From: Bizionia paragorgiae
Lineage (GTDB): Bacteria > Bacteroidota > Bacteroidia > Flavobacteriales > Flavobacteriaceae
Length of the DNA: 26,877 nucleotides
Reading direction: 5' to 3'
Assembly: GCF_900107625.1 (NCBI RefSeq)
Contig: NZ_FNQK01000024.1
Span: 1-26,877, forward strand
Within the stretch, counting starts at the first letter, position 1, and each line of letters opens with the position of its first letter. The notes below the pieces were generated by a model. The model made no database searches. It had not been told where the DNA came from and saw nothing but the letters and a program-made list of their open reading frames with translations. Positions 842 to 11,058 of this stretch are shown here, one piece after another. A program made the translations under genes and the position numbers.

Positions 842-890
842 AAAAAAAGAGAGGGGTTTCTATTAAATTAGAAACCCCTCTTTCTTTTAT
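842..890. terminator. Bidirectional intrinsic terminator between convergent genes.
   Basis: An 11-bp perfect stem (agaggggtttc 850-860 pairing with gaaacccctct 871-881) encloses a 10-nt loop. It is flanked by an A8 run on the 5' side and a ttcttttat run on the 3' side. It sits between the stop of the + gene (825) and the stop of the - gene (931). Confidence 0.8.
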
Positions 891-930: not shown

Positions 931-3900
931 CTAAGCTTTAAAACCTTTCTGAAGCACTTCTTTTATACCTTCTAAATTATCAGAAAACTGCATCAATTGA
1001 GAAAGTAACTGCGCCATTTCATTTTTATTACCGAAGCCTTTTAGTTTATTATTCTTTTGAAAGGTCTCCCTTATTACAGCCCAACGCTCTTTGTCCGTTT
1101 CAGAAAGATCACCAACAAGCTCTTTGTACTTTAATAAATTTGCTTCAGCAGAAGAAGTCAGCGTTTGCGATTCGCTTTCATAGTGCGATAGCACCAGTGT
1201 TTTTAGCTCTTGATCATTCATTACCGGAACAACCTTAGCAACCATTTTATTCATATCCCTATACGAACCCTGTAGTTTAAACGAAGGCTCTGTGCGATAG
1301 TCATCTTCCATAGCTGCACTTTTAATATAGGTCGCATTAACTTTAAGCACGGTATTTCTAATTTGAATCACCTTCTCTAAAACTGAAACATAGTCTTGAA
1401 CTTCTTGATTGGTGTAATTACCCGTTAATTGTGCCTCTTGATTACCATTTTCAATTCTATCAAGCAAGGTGTAAACGTCATCAAAATTCTTACTCCCTAA
1501 TTGGTGTAAAATAGGATTTGATGTTAATGCGTTTTCAATAAGACTCAACTTAAATAAATGCGCAGTATCTCCAATAATATCACCAAGGTTATAAATATCT
1601 GCTCTATTAGCTAACATATCAGGAATTCTAAACTTATCACCACTTTCAGTATAAGGGTTTCCAGCCATAATTACACAGAATTTCTTCCCTCTTAGATCGT
1701 AGGTTCGAGAAACGCCGTTATAGATACCTTCAACTTTTCGCGTTCCATCGGATAGCGAGATGAATTTTTGCAAAAATTCCGGATTACAATGCTGAATATC
1801 GTCAAGGTACAACATCACATTATTACCCATTTCGAAAGCCAAGTTTAACTTCTTTAACTCCTCGCGAGCTGCAGAATTTGTTGCCGAAGCGGGGTCTACC
1901 GACGTAACATCATGACCTATTGATGGTCCGTTAATTTTCATAAAAATTAAACCTAACCGATTTGCTATGTATTCCATCAAGGTAGTTTTTCCATACCCTG
2001 GCGGCGATATTAATAACAATAAGCCCATTCTATCCGTTCGATTTTGATCGCCTACAGTCCCCAGTTGCTTTGCTAAATTATCTCCAAAAAGCGGAAAATA
2101 AACTTGATCAATTAATTTATTTCTAACAAACGAACTCAGAATTTTAGGTTTAAACTCTTCTAATTTTAACACCTCTTTTAAATGAATGGTCACCTCGTGT
2201 TTTGCTTTTCTAAAAGCATAGTAAGCAGGCACTTTTATTCTAAAATAACGTTCATAAGCCGTTAAAAAATCGTGATAGTTAAACTGAAAAACTCCATTTT
2301 GAATAGTCCCATGATCTCCTCGCAACCCTTCTATAGCCTCTGAAGGCGATGTAAACTGTGCGTTTAGAACAGATTCGTCTTCAAAAAGAATTAAACACAC
2401 CACTTCATTTACATACTTTAACTTGAATTCTAAATCCTCAGCATTCTCACTTGCCAAATAGGCTTTTACCCACTGACGAATTAAAGCCACTTTCGACGAA
2501 TTGACCTCTAGTGCATCAAGACTTTTTCTGAATTTAAGATCTGCTTTTTGGGCTTTCATTTCATTAAGAAATGCTTCCTTAATCTGAATTGCAACCCCAC
2601 TCTTTTGAAAGTCATCATCATTTTGAAGCTCTTCAAACAAATAGCGAGCAGCTTGTTCTGCATGAGACGCTACATATATACCTGAAGTCTCAGCAAAATC
2701 GTAAAGAGCAATTTGAAGTTTACTCAAAATATACTCATACTCTTTTGTGGTCGGGAAATACCGTATAACTTCACCTGATGCTTTTATACCCTCATTAAGG
2801 TAGCGTCGATTTTCATCACTTGTAAAACGCCAAAAATAGTGTGCACAAGCTCTAATCTCCGGGTGAAACCGCAATAACTCAAGCGCCTTGTGCTTTTGTA
2901 TAAGTGTTGATAATATTTTAGCAGCGTCAAGATCATGCACCCCTTTCACATAGCCCTCAGAATAATCCTTACTACTCTCTTCTTGAACTAGGGTAATAAG
3001 CTCCTCGTCGGTGTGATCTAAAATAGCATCGTTATGCTTAGTAAAGATTTTATATGCCAAGTAGGCCCCTCTATAAATATATTTATTTTCAGAAATATAA
3101 TCTTGACTCCAAAATTCTTCTGAATCTAAAAGTGTTTGGTTTTCTATATTTTGATAAAAATCGGTTCCAGTTAAGTGGTATTTTAGACGTCCATCGGTAA
3201 AAACTATAACCAAATCTAACTCCTGATTATTAACCCCGAATTTATGTTTCCCTAGGCGAATTACATTATCGCCATCCTCATAAAGTTCTTTTTTATCTTT
3301 AAGCTTTCGAAGCGCATCTTCGCGTGCCGATTTAAGTAAAGTTAAAATTTCTTCTGCCCTACCACTATCGTCCATATTTTGAAGTTGCTGGGCAATATCT
3401 CTAGCTTTACTCACCAAAATATCTGAAGCAAAATACCCGTTAATATCTGAAACTTCAGAAAAGGACTCTGCTTTTTTACGCACGCCATTTAAAATACGTT
3501 CTGCCGATTTTTGTAAAACAAGTGCTCGCTTATTTCGTTTTTCAATGACGCTATTTTTACGCGCTTGAAAAGCATTATACACTTCTTCCCGCTTCTCAAT
3601 TATTAATCCGATAAAATCCTCATAATCGGCGAACTTTCCTTCCAGTTCTTCTAGTTGAATGGAAACTCTAGTTTGATACTCATCACATTTTTCGGGAGTA
3701 TCAGCAATATCTAAGTAATTAATAATACTCTGGTCTATTAATTTTAATTGAGCTGCAAACTCCGCTTGCGCCTCTTCACTACCAAGAGATTTCGTTTTTT
3801 TTCTTATTTCAGCTTTCAACTGATTAATAGTAGCAAAAATCAGTGAGATATTATTAATGATTTTAGTAGAATGCGATGTGTCTTCAATTTCTAAATTAGA

Positions 3901-5808
3901 GACAATATCAATTAGCATCTCGAGATCTTTAGAGTTCTCATTAACCTTATCTTCTAACTGTTTCGCATCGATAACCTTTACAATACTACCTAAGGACTTT
4001 TCGTGTTTTTCAACCTCATCCTCGTAAGGCTTTAAGGCTTTATCATCGAGAAGAAAGGTAGCACATCGATTAGATATACGAGAGGTTTGCTCAGCAATTT
4101 GGTTCTCTAAATCTTCAATAAACCCCTCATCGACATAGCGAATTTCTTTTAAACTAATTGCTTCTCCGCGCATCCCCCTAAATTGGGTAAGAACATCTAC
4201 AAAATCATTAATACTTCTAAAGCCTGTACTTTTAACTTTATTAAATAAAACCTGTGTTGTCTTTTCAATCTCAACGGTTTTTTGCTGAGCATTTTTTTTT
4301 AATTGTAAAACCTTTTGAAACTCGTCGATAGCCGCATTGGCCGTCTTATTAATTTCTTGTAAAGGTTCATTTAATTGCTGGGTTTCCTTTTCATTTAACC
4401 AATAGTAAGCATCCAATAAGTCTTTAGACCGTTTAGCTACATCGTTATACAGTCCGTCGTAATTATCCTCCTTATTAAGCAAGTTAATAAGTCCGTTAAC
4501 CTCGGCCATCGCTTTAACAATGTCTTTATTCCCTATTTTGTATAGCAGACTATCTTTGTGAGTAGAAGGCATCAAATCCTTTTTTAAATAAGGGGTTTGC
4601 CAAATCTGAATAACATGATGACGCGTTTGCTCGTTTTCATTTCTAAAATAACACAACTCTCCATCCTCCAAAATGGTAAAACCATTACATATTATAGGCG
4701 TTTGAATCTCTTGAGAAATCACATTATAGCTCATTAGATTATATAAACCGTTTTCTGAAGAATAAAAAACATAAAGATAATCTTCGCCATTGGGAGAGGC
4801 TATTTTTTCTTGATAACGCACGTTCGGGATGCTATTATCAAAAAGATAGTACTCACCGGTATGCAAATAATAACCTGTCGGAAAAATAACACCATGATCG
4901 TCTGGCAGCAAAACACAGGTATCTTTTATACTATCGATCTTTTGAATTTCTTTAAGCTTATGATTATAAACAAAGTATCGCGGCTGTTCTTGAAAAGGTT
5001 TAATCTCTAAAATAATAAGATCTCCGAGATTCGCAAAGCGGTATTGCCCGTCGTCTAAAGTTTGGTCGCGGTGCTCTACAGGCTCGGAGTAAATGCCCTG
5101 GCCATCATCTGTATTGTCTTCGATTTTAATCGTTAAATCGCCTCCGATAGTTTCTACAAATACACGATCTAAAATAGACACGTGAGCATGGACTCCGCGT
5201 CGGTGCATGTCTCGCGAAACCTCCTGCCAATTAAACTCGTGTTGTGAAGGCAATTTATACTCGTGATCACTGCGGTTATCCACATACTGAAGTGTATTGT
5301 CTTTAATTAACCATTTAAAGGTTTTAATATCTGTAACGCTTTCACTTAATTGAAAGACCATATAGAGGTAGTTTCCTATAATGGCGAATTTAGAGAATAT
5401 GGTATTGCGGTAATATTTATAAAGGTTAGCAAAATCTAATTTAAACACATCGTCTTCCAAAAGATCTAAAGACACCGCTTCAAAGCTATTGTCTTTAAAC
5501 TTATAAATACTCATCACATCCTTTAGACCAATATCTGTTCGTAAGCCAAAATGAACATTGTACCCCAAAAGACAGATATCACCCAAAGAAACAATATCCC
5601 TAGCGATACAGTTGTTTTCTGTATTTATACGATCGTTGGTTATGAGTTTAGTTTCAAGAGAGCCAAAAACATCTTTTCGTCCGTTATTAAGTTGAATTAG
5701 ACGCTGTTGTAGTTCCACTTTTTGCTTTTGAAGTCGGTTTTGAATCACTTCATAAGTACCAACGTCAAGTTTTTGAGTATTTACGTCCTTTATAGGTTTC
5801 TTTGTCAT
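931..5808 (-). CDS. Giant (1625 aa) multidomain protein. A classical AAA+ ATPase core lies near the C-terminus; there is a long coiled-coil middle section and a beta-rich N-terminal region. Function is unknown.
   Basis: The 4.9-kb ORF is uninterrupted. A single P-loop (LLLISPPGYGKTTL, Walker A at 1981..1998) is followed by Walker B (VMLYLDDIQ, ~1798..1812). After that come a sensor-1-like motif (CVIMAGNP, N at 1657..1659) and an Arg-containing motif (RIPDMLANRADIYNL). No second NTP-binding motif is present. Residues ~430-800 are heptad-rich and charged, consistent with coiled coil. The gene is on the same strand as, and immediately downstream of, the flotillin gene. Confidence 0.85.
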   Translation of the reverse strand: MTKKPIKDVNTQKLDVGTYEVIQNRLQKQKVELQQRLIQLNNGRKDVFGSLETKLITNDRINTENNCIARDIVSLGDICLLGYNVHFGLRTDIGLKDVMSIYKFKDNSFEAVSLDLLEDDVFKLDFANLYKYYRNTIFSKFAIIGNYLYMVFQLSESVTDIKTFKWLIKDNTLQYVDNRSDHEYKLPSQHEFNWQEVSRDMHRRGVHAHVSILDRVFVETIGGDLTIKIEDNTDDGQGIYSEPVEHRDQTLDDGQYRFANLGDLIILEIKPFQEQPRYFVYNHKLKEIQKIDSIKDTCVLLPDDHGVIFPTGYYLHTGEYYLFDNSIPNVRYQEKIASPNGEDYLYVFYSSENGLYNLMSYNVISQEIQTPIICNGFTILEDGELCYFRNENEQTRHHVIQIWQTPYLKKDLMPSTHKDSLLYKIGNKDIVKAMAEVNGLINLLNKEDNYDGLYNDVAKRSKDLLDAYYWLNEKETQQLNEPLQEINKTANAAIDEFQKVLQLKKNAQQKTVEIEKTTQVLFNKVKSTGFRSINDFVDVLTQFRGMRGEAISLKEIRYVDEGFIEDLENQIAEQTSRISNRCATFLLDDKALKPYEDEVEKHEKSLGSIVKVIDAKQLEDKVNENSKDLEMLIDIVSNLEIEDTSHSTKIINNISLIFATINQLKAEIRKKTKSLGSEEAQAEFAAQLKLIDQSIINYLDIADTPEKCDEYQTRVSIQLEELEGKFADYEDFIGLIIEKREEVYNAFQARKNSVIEKRNKRALVLQKSAERILNGVRKKAESFSEVSDINGYFASDILVSKARDIAQQLQNMDDSGRAEEILTLLKSAREDALRKLKDKKELYEDGDNVIRLGKHKFGVNNQELDLVIVFTDGRLKYHLTGTDFYQNIENQTLLDSEEFWSQDYISENKYIYRGAYLAYKIFTKHNDAILDHTDEELITLVQEESSKDYSEGYVKGVHDLDAAKILSTLIQKHKALELLRFHPEIRACAHYFWRFTSDENRRYLNEGIKASGEVIRYFPTTKEYEYILSKLQIALYDFAETSGIYVASHAEQAARYLFEELQNDDDFQKSGVAIQIKEAFLNEMKAQKADLKFRKSLDALEVNSSKVALIRQWVKAYLASENAEDLEFKLKYVNEVVCLILFEDESVLNAQFTSPSEAIEGLRGDHGTIQNGVFQFNYHDFLTAYERYFRIKVPAYYAFRKAKHEVTIHLKEVLKLEEFKPKILSSFVRNKLIDQVYFPLFGDNLAKQLGTVGDQNRTDRMGLLLLISPPGYGKTTLMEYIANRLGLIFMKINGPSIGHDVTSVDPASATNSAAREELKKLNLAFEMGNNVMLYLDDIQHCNPEFLQKFISLSDGTRKVEGIYNGVSRTYDLRGKKFCVIMAGNPYTESGDKFRIPDMLANRADIYNLGDIIGDTAHLFKLSLIENALTSNPILHQLGSKNFDDVYTLLDRIENGNQEAQLTGNYTNQEVQDYVSVLEKVIQIRNTVLKVNATYIKSAAMEDDYRTEPSFKLQGSYRDMNKMVAKVVPVMNDQELKTLVLSHYESESQTLTSSAEANLLKYKELVGDLSETDKERWAVIRETFQKNNKLKGFGNKNEMAQLLSQLMQFSDNLEGIKEVLQKGFKA
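1490..2046 (-). other. AAA+ ATPase core domain of the giant protein (approximately residues 1255-1440).
   Basis: The order is Walker A GYGKTT, Walker B DDIQ, sensor-1 N (AGNP), then an Arg-finger-like R…NRAD motif. Spacing is about 65 aa between Walker A and B and about 48 aa between Walker B and sensor-1. This is typical of classical AAA/AAA_5-like modules. Confidence 0.7.
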
Positions 5809-5870
5809 TATATCCTATCCTGAATTTTAAATTATATCTGCTAATACGTCCTACTATAATCCTGAAATAT

Positions 5871-5899
5871 AAAGCCGACTGGAATCGTCGGCTTTACTT
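5871..5899 (-). terminator. GC-rich hairpin 4 nt downstream of the flotillin stop. Candidate intrinsic terminator or attenuator separating flotillin from the giant ATPase gene.
   Basis: Minus-strand RNA reads aagt-AAAGCCGAC-gauucca-GUCGGCUUU-auauuucagg. The stem is a perfect 9 bp with a 7-nt loop, and the tail is U-rich but interrupted (UUUAUAUUU). It lies in the 91-nt gap between 5900 and 5808. Confidence 0.45.
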
Positions 5900-7984
5900 T
5901 TATTTTCTTAGGTTAGATACCGTTTTATCAGAAATCCCTAAGCCTTTTGCTAGGTTTAATAAATTTCCTAGCATGGTTTGCTCATCACGATCATCAGATT
6001 TCATTTTCAAATCGGCAATTAAACCAGCGATACTAACATTTTTAAGGTCCTCGGTAGACACGCCATACTTATCTGCAAACGCTTTTACCTTTTCTAAAAG
6101 ATCGCCCTTGGTACCATTGCTTTCGTCACCTAAAATAGCGGATTTAACGTCTTGAACATTTGTTGAGTTTTGCACCAAACGATCATAACCTTTACCTCTA
6201 GTTATTTGTCCGATAATTTGATCGAAGAACATGGTCTCACCACCAACAATATCAATTTTAGCAGCTTTTAGGGCATCGCTAATCACCTGAGCTTGTGCAT
6301 CGGCAATATCTTTCTGGATATTTATATGTGCAAGATCCACTTTAAGATCTTTATTTAAGCGCAATTTAAATTCTTCATGATCTTTACCAACGCCATCTAA
6401 TTTTTTCATTGCGGCTGCTTTCTCTTCTATTCCTGTAGCATCGGCGATTGCTTTTTCTTTAATCACATCGGCTTCTGCTAGTCCATCTTTACGTTTGGCA
6501 TCGGCTTTAGCTTCGATTCCTGCTGCTTCTGCTTTCGCTTTTTTCTCTATAATATTAGCTTCCACAAGACCTTGACGTTCATTAGCATCTGCTTTCGCGT
6601 GCATCACTTGCGCTTCAGACATCCCTACAGTTGCCTCTTCTTTTGCTTGTGCTTCTGCTAAAATCTTACGTGCTTCTGCTTGTTTCTGACTCGCTTCTTT
6701 ATGAGCAAGCGCTTCGATATTAATTTCTTCAGCTTTTTGTTTCGCGGCTTCTTTTTGTGCTTCGGCTGCTTTAATAGTCTTAATTAAATCTTCTTCTGCG
6801 AGCCCTTCAGCAGTTGTAATTTTAACCTGCTTGTCTCTATCTGCTGTTTTAAAGGCCTGAATATCTTTCATATTCTCTTGTTCTTCCACCACTCCTTTTT
6901 CCAGCATGACACGATCTCTAATCACATCTTGAATATTCTTTTTCTCTACTTCAACAACTTTCTCTTTTTCAATCTGTGCTAAAGTAACCACGCGCTCGCG
7001 CTCTGTAACTTCCAACATCCTGTCTTTCTCCACACGTTCGGTCTCTACAGCATCGGTACGTTCCTTATTTTTAAGTGCCACAATAATTTGGCGTTGCATG
7101 TTTTCTTCGGCAACTTTTACTTTTTCTTCGGTTTCGATACGGGCACTTTCCGACTTTAAACGTTCCTCTTCACTCACCTTTAAGGTTTCGGCTTCTTCAC
7201 GCGATTTTATATTAGCGATTTCACGTTTTTGCTTCTCTTCTTTTTCTGCTAATTGTTTATCTAATTCTAAAATAGCCTCACGCGCTTCAACATCTTGTTT
7301 TCTGATGGTTTTTTCTTCATCGCGTTTTATCAAATTAGCTTTCATATTTTGAACAGCCGTAAGCTCAGTAATTTTCTTAATACCTTCGGCATCTAAAATA
7401 TTGTCTGGCTTAAGTTCCTTTACCGACGTTTGCTCTAAAAAGTCGATAGCACAATCCTCTAAGGTATACCCATTAAGATCGGTTCCAATAATGTTTACTA
7501 TCTCATCACGAAACTCTCTTCGCGCTTCGTAAAGCTCTATAAAATCGAATTTCTTACCTACTGTTTTTAGAGCTTCAGAAAACTTCGCTTCAAAAAGATC
7601 TTCCAAGGTTGCTATTTTAGAAGCGCGGTCCACACCAATAGTTTGCGCTACCTTTTTTATATATTCGATATCGTTATTCACACGAACAAAAAAGGCTACT
7701 TTAATATCGGCACGCATATTATCTTTACAAATAAGACCTTCGTGTGCAATTCTTTCAATTTGGATTTTCTTCACTGAAATATCCATAATTTCTGTTTTGT
7801 GAAATACAGGTACAGTATATAAACCTTTATCTGTTGCCACTTTTGTTCCACCAAAACCTGTTCTAATAAGCGCTTGGCCTTGTGGTATTTTTTTGTAAAA
7901 CATCGCTATAATCGCGAAGTATACGATAACAAGGAAAAGCAACACGCCTATTCCTATCCCAATAATTGGTAAAATTGATTCCAT
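5900..7984 (-). CDS. Flotillin-like SPFH/band-7 protein (YqiK/FloT-like).
   Basis: An N-terminal TM helix (ILPIIGIGIGVLLFLVIVYFAIIAMF) is followed by an SPFH domain (…GGTKVATDKGLYTVPVFHKTEIMDISVKKIQIER…). After that comes a long Glu/Ala/Lys-rich coiled coil with the EA-repeat character typical of flotillins (…KAEAAGIEAKADAKRKDGLAEADVIKEKAIADATGIEEKAAAM…). Confidence 0.9.
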   Translation of the reverse strand: MESILPIIGIGIGVLLFLVIVYFAIIAMFYKKIPQGQALIRTGFGGTKVATDKGLYTVPVFHKTEIMDISVKKIQIERIAHEGLICKDNMRADIKVAFFVRVNNDIEYIKKVAQTIGVDRASKIATLEDLFEAKFSEALKTVGKKFDFIELYEARREFRDEIVNIIGTDLNGYTLEDCAIDFLEQTSVKELKPDNILDAEGIKKITELTAVQNMKANLIKRDEEKTIRKQDVEAREAILELDKQLAEKEEKQKREIANIKSREEAETLKVSEEERLKSESARIETEEKVKVAEENMQRQIIVALKNKERTDAVETERVEKDRMLEVTERERVVTLAQIEKEKVVEVEKKNIQDVIRDRVMLEKGVVEEQENMKDIQAFKTADRDKQVKITTAEGLAEEDLIKTIKAAEAQKEAAKQKAEEINIEALAHKEASQKQAEARKILAEAQAKEEATVGMSEAQVMHAKADANERQGLVEANIIEKKAKAEAAGIEAKADAKRKDGLAEADVIKEKAIADATGIEEKAAAMKKLDGVGKDHEEFKLRLNKDLKVDLAHINIQKDIADAQAQVISDALKAAKIDIVGGETMFFDQIIGQITRGKGYDRLVQNSTNVQDVKSAILGDESNGTKGDLLEKVKAFADKYGVSTEDLKNVSIAGLIADLKMKSDDRDEQTMLGNLLNLAKGLGISDKTVSNLRK

Positions 7985-8002
7985 ATGTTTAGTTATAATT
8001 AA

Positions 8003-8713
8003 TTAGTCGTTATAAGATTGTACTAAATAGTAATTGCGATCGGCCGATCTTTTAATAATAAGAATTGAAGCACCGTAAGTGAGGGGTTCTCCATTTAAGG
8101 ATTTTACGTAAATCGATAAGGAGTCGCCATTAATTACCACCTCTGCATTCCCCATTTTATCTTCTGAAATTGAAGATAGAAGTGTTGCTTTCCTTCCTAA
8201 ATAATCTATTGGTGCATCACCATCTTTATTAAGATGTTTGAAAAAGCTTTTAAAGGGAGTTGTTATAATTTTGGTGATTATTAGCGCTGGAATACTGGCG
8301 ATTAACATTATTCCAAATCCCAAAGGATTGTCGTAGGTATACGTTAACGCGGTTGTAATAGTCGTAAGAAACCACCATATAAAAATCCAAAACGTGAAAG
8401 TGAACATAAAGGGCAAACCCACGAAGTTGAAATTGATTAAAGCAACTTGCCACCATTTAAGTGGTTTCCTCCTTTTACCGACGACATCTTCTCTATTAAT
8501 TTCGGTATTGGATATATCTTCAAAATCCATATTACCGCCTTCAATACCTGAGTCTGCTTCAATCTCAACCTCTGTATCTATGTCAATATCAAAATCAGGA
8601 TCAAAATCTAGTCCGCTCATCATGGTGACTATCCAATACAAAATAAGGATCATCAATAAAACACTAAGCACGACGTTAACCTCCGAAAAAAGTATGTTAG
8701 TTAGCTCTGCCAA
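8003..8713 (-). CDS. NfeD-like (YqiJ/YuaF-like) membrane protein with a C-terminal OB-fold beta-barrel. It is the usual partner of SPFH/flotillin genes.
   Basis: Two hydrophobic segments flank an acidic DFDPDFDIDID… loop. The C-terminal ~70 aa (GRKATLLS…MGNAEVVINGDSLSIYVKSLNGEPLTYGASILIIKR…YYLVQ) match the NfeD short-form OB-fold pattern. The gene lies immediately upstream of the flotillin gene, as in E. coli yqiJ-yqiK and B. subtilis yuaF-floT. Its start is 2 nt from the PspA stop. Confidence 0.7.
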   Translation of the reverse strand: MAELTNILFSEVNVVLSVLLMILILYWIVTMMSGLDFDPDFDIDIDTEVEIEADSGIEGGNMDFEDISNTEINREDVVGKRRKPLKWWQVALINFNFVGLPFMFTFTFWIFIWWFLTTITTALTYTYDNPLGFGIMLIASIPALIITKIITTPFKSFFKHLNKDGDAPIDYLGRKATLLSSISEDKMGNAEVVINGDSLSIYVKSLNGEPLTYGASILIIKRSADRNYYLVQSYND

Positions 8714-8715
8714 TA

Positions 8716-9432
8716 TTAACTGTTTTTAGAGTTTTTTAATCCCAATTGTTCCTTGAGTTTAGCCAAATCATTATCGGCTTTTGCAGTAGAGGTATCGGCG
8801 GCTTTATCAATTTCATCATCTATAGACTTAGAGGCCTTCGCAATATCACCATAAGCTTCTGCAAGCGCTTCTTCCTGTGCCACTTTCTCCTTCATACGCT
8901 CCAACATAGACACCGTACCAGTACTATCCAATTCGGCCATTTGCTTATTTAGATTCTTGGTCGCATTGCTCACTTTTACCCGAGCTTTTAAGGTTTTAAG
9001 CTCATTTTCCCAGTTTCCAATATTCGCTTTTATTGTTTGAATACTTTTTTGAATCTGTTCTACGCTATTATCAAATTTAGCAGACTCTTCTTTTGCTCGT
9101 AAAAGTTGCTTTTCGGCACTGTCTTTTTGAGCTAAAGCTTCTTTAGCCAATCGGTCAGCTTCTGCAGTATCGATCTCATTCGTGCTGGCTTTTTTCAAAA
9201 TAATTATCGCTTTATTTTGATAATCATCAGCTTTATTTTGAAATTCTTCCTGTTCACTTTTAGATCGTATAGCCATGGCTTTAACCTGTGCTAAAGCCTC
9301 CAAACTTTTATCGAGATCTAATCGCATATCGCGAATACCTTGCTCGGTCATTTTAATGGGATCTTCCATTTTATCTATTGCAGAATTGGTTTCTGCCTCT
9401 CCTATTTTAAATAATCTTCTAAAGATGTTCAT
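8716..9432 (-). CDS. pspA: PspA/IM30/Vipp1 family protein (bacterial ESCRT-III superfamily).
   Basis: The N-terminus MNIFRRLFKIGEAETNSAIDKMEDPIKMTEQGIRDM… aligns with E. coli PspA [36 protein letters not shown]…. The protein is all-helical and coiled-coil, 238 aa, a typical family length. Confidence 0.9.
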   Translation of the reverse strand: MNIFRRLFKIGEAETNSAIDKMEDPIKMTEQGIRDMRLDLDKSLEALAQVKAMAIRSKSEQEEFQNKADDYQNKAIIILKKASTNEIDTAEADRLAKEALAQKDSAEKQLLRAKEESAKFDNSVEQIQKSIQTIKANIGNWENELKTLKARVKVSNATKNLNKQMAELDSTGTVSMLERMKEKVAQEEALAEAYGDIAKASKSIDDEIDKAADTSTAKADNDLAKLKEQLGLKNSKNS

Positions 9433-9443
9433 AATGTTCGTTT

Positions 9444-9839
9444 TTAGTATTTTGAAAATTCAATAATTTTGTCTGAGTATTCAGACATTAAGAGACTTAA
9501 AGAATTTAATGACCCTTCGAGTTCATTTAAATCCAAATTCTCTATTTGTAGTGTATCTCTATAGATAACTTTCTCGCCAGAATCATCTAAAACAAAAGCC
9601 CCGTGTACAATATCTCTGTTTTTTTGCAGTAAACTTTTAAATATTTTTTCGGACTGATTATTTATCTTAAAAATAAACTGCTCCATAATTAAAATTGGGG
9701 GAGCGACGCCTATAATTAAATTTCTAATTCCAAAGTTTTCCTTTTGAACAACCATAAGACCATCTTCTAGATTCTCTCTAGTTATATCAAAATTTAATTC
9801 TAGTAAAAAATTTCTCGTTATATTGAAATGATTTTTCAT
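9444..9839 (-). CDS. Small (131 aa) cytoplasmic protein, possibly YbjN-like with a T3SS-chaperone-like fold. It is the first gene of the PspA operon.
   Basis: The ORF is complete and sits 11 nt upstream of pspA on the same strand. It is acidic, carries no TM or signal peptide, and has a size and alpha/beta pattern resembling YbjN-family proteins. The assignment is tentative because I cannot run a profile search. Confidence 0.45.
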   Translation of the reverse strand: MKNHFNITRNFLLELNFDITRENLEDGLMVVQKENFGIRNLIIGVAPPILIMEQFIFKINNQSEKIFKSLLQKNRDIVHGAFVLDDSGEKVIYRDTLQIENLDLNELEGSLNSLSLLMSEYSDKIIEFSKY

Positions 9840-10108
9840 CGGTGGTTTTTAGGGTTAGTAGTAAAATTTTGAAAGCTTAATATTACAAAAAAGTATCAAG
9901 ACTTTGTTAAATTATCTTAACAAGCTCTGCTAAGATGTATAAAATTAATAGTATCATAAATTGTGGTTTTAAGGGTTAATACCGGTCTTAAATTACCTTT
10001 CGAATGGTTTTAAAGCTAAAAATATTAGCTATTTTCTTTAGTATTTGCTAATATTGTTAGACCAAAGTACAAAAAAAATTTAATATTGCAAATATAATTA
10101 GCAAAAAC
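9840..10108. promoter_or_regulatory. Divergent AT-rich promoter/operator region between the PspA operon (-) and the XRE regulator (+).
   Basis: This is a 269-nt non-coding AT-rich interval between divergent starts at 9839 and 10109. Several TAnnTTTG-like Bacteroidota -7 element candidates occur on both strands (for example tagtatttg, taatattg). I cannot place them confidently. Confidence 0.5.
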
Positions 10109-10867
10109 ATGTCGTTATTCGGTAAAAATATTAGAAAAATAAGAAGTGTTAAAGCGATGAGTCAGCAGGCCTTCGCTGAGATATTCGACCTAAAGCGCGG
10201 AACACTAGGCGCTTACGAAGAAGGCCGAAGCGAACCTAAAACAGAAACGATAATTAAGATTGCTAATTATTTTAGCATCCCTATCGACGATCTACTCACA
10301 AAAGAACTCACGGTAAATCAGCTTTTAAAATTTAAAGGCGATATCGAAGATCATTTTTTTGAAGAAACAAAACATGATTTTATTTCTGTGCCTTGTATTA
10401 CACCCGAACAACAGAATGATTACATTAAGAACGCTTCCCTAAGCTCATTTATTAATAGCTTACCTTTTATTAGCCTACCTAATGATAACGCTAAAAAAAA
10501 GAGAGCCTATATAGTAGACGACTTGGAAATGAGTACTGAAAATGGCGGATTATACCCAAAAGACATCGTGTTTGGCGAATGGATACCCAAATCAGCTTTC
10601 GATACTATTTCGCCTTCTCATATGTATTTAATACTTACTAGTAACGCTTTAGTACTTAAAAGAATTTACCCCAAAGGTGATACCCTCACCTTAACATCAG
10701 ATCATAAAGGCATCGAGGAACAACACATCACAACTTCGGAAATTAAGGAATTATGGGAAATTAAATCGGTATTACAACACCGACTTCCAGACACTAAAAA
10801 CAATCACGTGTTAGACAAAATCGCCTTTCTAGAGAATGAATTTAAAAAATTAAAATCTTCAATGTAA
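10109..10867 (+). CDS. XRE-family HTH transcriptional regulator with a C-terminal LexA/CI (peptidase S24)-like domain.
   Basis: The N-terminal 65 aa are a canonical HTH_XRE (IRKIRSVKAMSQQAFAEIFDLKRGTLGAYEEGRSEPKTETIIKIANYFSIPIDDLL). The C-terminal ~110 aa follow the S24 topology (VDDLEMST…GEWIP…ALVLKRIYP…GDTLTL…ELWEIKSV), with a KR pair where the catalytic Lys normally sits. The canonical G-D-S-M Ser motif is degenerate (DLEMST). Confidence 0.75.
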   Translation: MSLFGKNIRKIRSVKAMSQQAFAEIFDLKRGTLGAYEEGRSEPKTETIIKIANYFSIPIDDLLTKELTVNQLLKFKGDIEDHFFEETKHDFISVPCITPEQQNDYIKNASLSSFINSLPFISLPNDNAKKKRAYIVDDLEMSTENGGLYPKDIVFGEWIPKSAFDTISPSHMYLILTSNALVLKRIYPKGDTLTLTSDHKGIEEQHITTSEIKELWEIKSVLQHRLPDTKNNHVLDKIAFLENEFKKLKSSM

Positions 10868-10970: not shown

Positions 10971-10976
10971 TTGTTG

Positions 10977-11058
10977 TGCGGGCGGGGAGACTCGAACTCC
11001 CACACCTCGCGGCACTAGATCCTAAGTCTAGCGTGTCTACCAATTCCACCACGCCCGC
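10977..11058 (-). tRNA. tRNA-Leu, anticodon TAG, with long variable arm.
   Basis: The reverse complement reads GCGGGCGTGGTGGAATTGGTAGACACGCTAGACTTAGGATCTAGTGCCGCGAGGTGTGGGAGTTCGAGTCTCCCCGCCCGCA. A 7-bp acceptor stem GCGGGCG/CGCCCGC is present, with a D-loop GGAATTGGTAGA and anticodon loop (ACTTAGGAT, anticodon TAG). A long extra arm and a T-arm GGTTCGAGTCC-like GAGTTCGAGTCTC follow, then discriminator A. CCA is not encoded. Confidence 0.9.

Follow-up and report, generated by a model that had tools for sequence, protein, structure and literature searches.

On balance, the operon described here is best read as a flavobacterial member of the CesT/Tir–PspA–YqiJ/YuaF–flotillin–β-propeller-AAA+ class that is collinear with bacABCDE and probably serves as an inducible inner-membrane stress or maintenance module. 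The DNA analysed (the window) is a 26,877-nucleotide stretch of contig NZ_FNQK01000024.1 from Bizionia paragorgiae; the gene content of the operon, the conservation of its layout, the tight linkage of its ATPase and flotillin genes and a set of conserved DNA motifs were observed directly. The operon class, including a divergent regulator of the cHTH+protease type, was described by Ravi et al. (2024, mSystems; PMC11237479), and a supplementary table of that paper gives the same six-gene layout for Dokdonia donghaensis (ANH61663.1). Both organisms are Flavobacteriaceae, all five operon genes occur in the same order beside a divergent cHTH+protease regulator, and the sections of the paper that deal with the class show no substantive gene-level difference from the window. 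The operon is therefore already known, a flavobacterial member of the class having been published in 2024, and the original prediction of an uncharacterised system does not stand, the more so as experimental data exist for bacABCDEF of Pseudomonas aeruginosa (PMC10948618). Relative to those sections, the present analysis adds a small open reading frame (ORF), CTAA-N5-TTAG operator candidates, a hairpin and insertion hot spot behind the flotillin gene, and a MoxR/dynein-like assignment of the AAA+ module.

An ORF listing of the window placed five minus-strand genes and one divergent plus-strand gene exactly where they had been predicted, bearing out the picture of tightly packed co-directional genes that face an XRE gene. 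The first gene (9444..9839) encodes a 131-aa CesT/Tir-superfamily chaperone-like protein that matches Pfam PF22550 CesT_Tir_1 over its full length (E=3e-56); YbjN, the family first proposed for it, gave only a sub-threshold match (E=1.2e-3) and was discarded. Then come a 238-aa PspA/IM30 protein with an ESCRT-III fold (8716..9432; PF04012 PspA_IM30, E=2e-41), a 236-aa YqiJ/YuaF(NfeD)-like membrane protein (8003..8713), a 694-aa YqiK-type flotillin (5900..7984; Band_7, E=6e-15) and a giant, 1625-aa ATPase (931..5808; Pfam DUF3686 4e-177, DUF7902 1e-24, AAA 9e-8), so that the second and fourth genes are PspA/IM30 and flotillin as predicted. The flotillin is made up of a transmembrane (TM) segment, Band_7, a long coiled coil and a flotillin C-terminal part, and is 29% identical to E. 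coli YqiK (E=7e-45). Successive genes are separated by 11, 2, 18 and 91 nucleotides, and a single bidirectional intrinsic terminator (848..883, unstranded) closes the operon. On the plus strand, the regulator gene (10109..10867) encodes a 252-aa XRE-HTH protein (HTH_19, 2e-12) whose C-terminal domain resembles a degenerate S24 (LexA/CI) domain, and a tRNA-Leu(TAG) gene lies at 10976-11058. The canonical Psp partners, PspF (a σ54 enhancer-binding protein), PspB and PspC, are absent as predicted: no window ORF carries the corresponding Pfam domains.

The third gene, predicted to be NfeD/YqiJ-like, keeps that designation on its architecture, its position and weak profile matches, but has no Pfam or NCBIfam match of its own. 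Its sequence shows three hydrophobic segments, taken to be TM, together with an acidic loop and, at the C-terminal end, a β domain. Pfam YqiJ_N was matched by 6 of 37 orthologues, and distant orthologues gave no Pfam match except a weak one to NfeD in Deinococcus. A first hhalign comparison of the flavobacterial profile with E. coli YqiJ was not significant; after distant family members were added, the alignment was collinear and weakly positive (E=7.7e-4). A PDB sequence search with the profile returned nothing beyond a weak match to YuaF (E=1).

The giant ATPase proved to contain more than the AAA+ module that had been named as its sole recognisable part, DUF3686 and DUF7902 being recognised as well. 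From the N-terminus it consists of a helix, a seven-bladed β-propeller (DUF3686), and about 420 aa of helical and coiled-coil structure that includes DUF7902; a small β domain and a helical domain follow, and behind these come an AAA+ module of MoxR/dynein-like appearance and, at the C-terminus, a helical bundle. In the AF2 model the propeller spans residues 54-404 and the helical region residues 421-840, and Foldseek matched WD40 domains at 1e-5. A pre-sensor-1 β-hairpin is present in the AAA+ module, which in structure comes closest to dynein, midasin, MoxR, ClpA/B, Lon and RuvB, with Vps4 ranking behind all of them; it thus looks MoxR/dynein- or Lon/RuvB/Clp-like, neither Vps4-like nor of the classical AAA clade to which it had been assigned. 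MoxR-type ATPases are usually partnered with VWA proteins, and no such partner was found here. The Walker A motif (GYGKT, with K1274), the Walker B motif (LDD, with D1336 and D1337) and the sensor-1 Asn are invariant between flavobacterial and proteobacterial ATPases, from which the enzyme is probably active; its Walker B motif ends in D-D rather than the usual D-E, and hydrolysis may therefore be slow or regulatory.

The closest experimentally studied relative is bacABCDEF of P. aeruginosa (PA3732–PA3727), a neighbourhood that reads DUF2170–PspA–213-aa protein–688-aa protein–DUF3686/AAA–PLD. Its first five genes are collinear with the window as CesT superfamily–PspA–YqiJ-like–flotillin–giant ATPase, with identities of 40.6% for the ATPase and 45.7% for the flotillin (BacD), 28% for PspA against BacB (family HMM, E=3e-16), and a YqiJ-like family HMM match to BacC at 9e-13. 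The first genes, DUF2170/YjfI in P. aeruginosa and CesT_Tir_1 in the window, have no BLAST-detectable similarity but form one superfamily according to the account of these families in Ravi et al. (PMC11237479). P. aeruginosa has a putative σ54 promoter where the window has the divergent XRE regulator, and possesses in addition bacF, a phospholipase-D gene with no counterpart in the window. The bac operon is co-transcribed as judged by RT-PCR, loss of bacA in a ΔbacA mutant leads to accumulation of the Bac proteins, and the operon has been linked to biofilm formation and virulence (PMC10948618). It is induced by stress as well as by phage. Parts of the arrangement recur elsewhere. In E. coli yqiJK, a YqiJ-like gene lies directly upstream of a YqiK-type flotillin gene as in the window, but the giant ATPase and CesT-like genes are both absent from the yqiJK region retrieved. 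In B. subtilis, yuaFGI pairs an NfeD-like gene with a flotillin gene, and pspA-ydjGHI shares the linkage of PspA with SPFH proteins. SPFH assemblies that work with dedicated AAA+ proteins include HflK/C–FtsH and prohibitin–m-AAA protease. The resemblance of these pairs to the window is conceptual, an analogy only: unlike FtsH and the m-AAA protease, the window ATPase lacks a protease domain and a TM segment, looks MoxR/dynein-like rather than classical, and has a β-propeller as well as a coiled coil.

Conservation of the locus was assessed in related and distant genomes. Of 80 Flavobacteriales species loci, 70 show the identical six-gene layout, and several of the remaining ten sit on truncated contigs; a Hymenobacter plasmid carries this layout too. 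The arrangement is thus far beyond chance, the co-localisation with pspA and flotillin genes holds in related genomes, and the conserved unit of PspA, SPFH protein and giant ATPase agrees with the proposal of a self-contained envelope-stress-type module. Nearly all Flavobacteriaceae carry the module, conserved by vertical descent (at least 559 species matches). In eight distant loci, from Pseudomonas, Proteus, Halomonas, Vibrio, Streptomyces, Nonomuraea, Deinococcus and Hymenobacter, the ATPase gene adjoins a flotillin gene every time, and this adjacency spans at least four phyla (Pseudomonadota, Actinomycetota, Deinococcota and Bacteroidota). A YqiJ-like gene is usually present too, but PspA is often missing, being found at only two of the eight. 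As to whether the ATPase is always linked to PspA, SPFH and NfeD proteins, the link to SPFH holds, that to the YqiJ/NfeD-like protein largely so, and that to PspA does not.

These distributions bear on the possibility that the giant ATPase is the bacterial counterpart of Vps4, acting chiefly on the PspA polymer while flotillin provides a platform. The fold of PspA is that of ESCRT-III, and the window, like archaeal and eukaryotic ESCRT-III–Vps4 systems, encodes an ESCRT-III-fold protein together with an AAA+ ATPase. PspA and the ATPase share an operon in both Bacteroidota and Pseudomonas, and the discussion of PspA–AAA+ associations in Ravi et al. (PMC11237479) suggests ATP-dependent remodelling. 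The ATPase nevertheless tracks flotillin and not PspA at the distant loci, and four Flavobacteriaceae retain the YqiJ-like, flotillin and ATPase genes without CesT, PspA or XRE. Compared with Vps4, moreover, the window ATPase has no MIT domain and is not of the classical clade, and Vps4 trails its best structural matches. We consider a Vps4-like action on PspA, as first proposed, unlikely, though the best placed of the alternatives.

The regulator gene is present with CesT and PspA in 70/70 loci and missing wherever they are missing. Pfam matches of the protein (HTH_19/HTH_3) are confined to its N-terminal part. An orthologue profile aligned with E. coli LexA by hhalign over residues 141-209 (E=7e-4, 26% probability), and a Hymenobacter orthologue exceeds the Pfam Peptidase_S24 threshold (7.7e-7; 29.3 bits versus 23.3), results that indirectly support an S24-like fold for the C-terminal domain; a PDB sequence search with the XRE profile gave nothing beyond weak LexA matches (E 0.05-1). 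At the positions aligned to the LexA Ser–Lys dyad, 34 orthologues have T (20), S (13) or G (1) and R (32) or K (2), the window regulator itself having S and K. The description of the regulator as LexA/CI-like accordingly holds for an XRE HTH joined to an S24-like fold, but not for a self-cleaving dyad.

Two CTAA-N5-TTAG palindromes, putative operators recognised by pattern matching and intergenic alignment, lie 32 bp apart at 10016..10028 and 10048..10060, the columns of the latter being 90-100% conserved across 71 intergenic regions. A putative third operator with the same palindrome (10263..10275) lies within the regulator gene at codons A52-S56. All 52 orthologues with the peptide ANYFS or ANFFS use the codons GCT, TTT and AGY there, against background frequencies of 35%, 75% and 38%. 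Since three free synonymous choices are fixed in 52/52, the palindrome is not a mere by-product of the conserved peptide and is held by synonymous-site constraint. A further conserved block, TTTTGCTAAT-N4-TTTGCAA (10086..10108; columns 90-100% conserved, supported by k-mer counts), is a degenerate half-site repeat that abuts the regulator start codon.

Upstream of the operon, a small ORF (9907..9957, minus strand) lies 67 nucleotides from the CesT-like gene and encodes the hydrophobic 16-codon peptide MILLILYILAELVKII, ending in a stop codon. Hydrophobic counterparts in relatives have 12-27 codons. An ATG-initiated ORF of at least 12 hydrophobic codons occurs at this position in 57 of 71 loci (shuffled sequences: mean 3.6, maximum 10), alignment entropy is lowest at codon position 2, and an element of about 19 nucleotides (repeats D1/D2) precedes both the small-ORF start and the CesT start. 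In roughly 10-14 of the 71 loci, among them that of Tamlana agarivorans, the closest named relative, the ORF is degenerate or lacking, which means that it cannot be essential. About 45 nucleotides upstream of the CesT start lies the conserved motif TTTTTTGTAATATTA (9878..9892, minus strand; columns 80-99% conserved), possibly a promoter element of the Bacteroidota -7 type or another repressor site. Leader RNA folding was not significant (z=-1.4), a search of the regulatory region against Rfam found no family even with permissive E-values, and a σ70 promoter scan, with a model ill-suited to Bacteroidota promoters, gave fewer matches than shuffled sequences. Directly after the flotillin stop codon, a GC-rich hairpin (5870..5896, minus strand; dG -17.1 kcal/mol, z=-3.5), with similar hairpins in most of 76 loci, is a possible partial terminator or stabiliser. 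In other species, the flotillin–ATPase junction is a site of variable gene insertions.

The pairing of an XRE domain with an S24-like domain also recalls the CI/LexA-like switch of an anti-phage defence or abortive-infection island, which would here have inserted at the tRNA-Leu gene. In P. aeruginosa the homologous operon responds to phage infection, PA3728-PA3732 being upregulated in every phage-infected sample (PMC12041424), and in Dokdonia a gene of the SieB (superinfection exclusion) family (E=3e-27) sits between the flotillin and ATPase genes. We regard this explanation as very unlikely. PADLOC gave no specific match for the six proteins, only generic HTH and coiled-coil noise, and tblastn of the ATPase found no homologue in 50,697 phage records. 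Vertical, near-universal conservation in Flavobacteriaceae, and core status of bac in P. aeruginosa (a cluster of 3222 member sequences), argue against an island. Nor does the tRNA-Leu gene mark an island boundary as first supposed: it adjoins the module in just 1 of 80 related species loci, that of the closest named relative (L079), and the window has a flat GC content with no compositional break, integrase or transposase. Less credible still is that the giant protein is the 'DNA repair ATPase' of its database entries, incidentally adjacent to membrane genes, for although the Pfam description of DUF3686, the NCBI names, weak RuvB_N matches at the P-loop, RuvB among the Foldseek matches and, in P. 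aeruginosa, recJ as the third gene downstream of that for the ATPase all point that way, the name is without experimental support in the searched literature, where no papers on DUF3686 were found, no nucleic-acid-binding domain was found in the protein, and flotillin adjacency, not that of any repair gene, is what at least four phyla have conserved.

For the favoured reading, an inducible inner-membrane module, a working scheme can be drawn from the sequence data. The XRE regulator, probably dimeric, would bind the CTAA-N5-TTAG palindromes, two in the shared intergenic region and one 215 bp away in its own gene, and repress transcription in both directions; its degenerate S24-like domain would act in signal sensing or dimerisation rather than as a self-cleaving protease. 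De-repression would yield the 16-aa hydrophobic micro-peptide, perhaps a leader or a membrane-inserted product. As loss of BacA raises Bac levels, the CesT-like chaperone may by analogy hold or regulate PspA, which would polymerise on damaged membrane, while the YqiJ-like protein and flotillin would build an SPFH microdomain or cage. The β-propeller and coiled-coil arm of the ATPase could serve to dock it on this SPFH assembly, which the enzyme may assemble, remodel or dismantle by means of a MoxR/dynein-like AAA+ ring. More tentatively, and with less confidence than in the module itself, we propose that the ATPase is a dedicated ATP-driven machine for assembly or disassembly of flotillin (SPFH) cages; that YqiJ-like protein, flotillin and ATPase form the core in at least four phyla, with PspA–CesT as a lineage-specific add-on; and that in Flavobacteriaceae the module is gated by a translated hydrophobic micro-peptide of 12-27 aa and by a looping XRE repressor that uses the intragenic operator.

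Bacterial PspA and Vipp1 are ESCRT-III homologues. Reviews describe bacteria as being without a Vps4-like remodelling ATPase (PMC7619361). The operon class is one of few places at which a large AAA+ machine is encoded alongside a flotillin and a protein of the ESCRT-III fold, and is therefore a good experimental entry point, an idea already in the literature. To it we add a caution that the database name 'DNA repair ATPase' lacks support, concrete candidate regulatory elements (the operators, the small ORF and the hairpin), and a sharper hypothesis, in which the ATPase would have flotillin rather than PspA as its constant partner and would itself be MoxR/dynein-like rather than Vps4-like.

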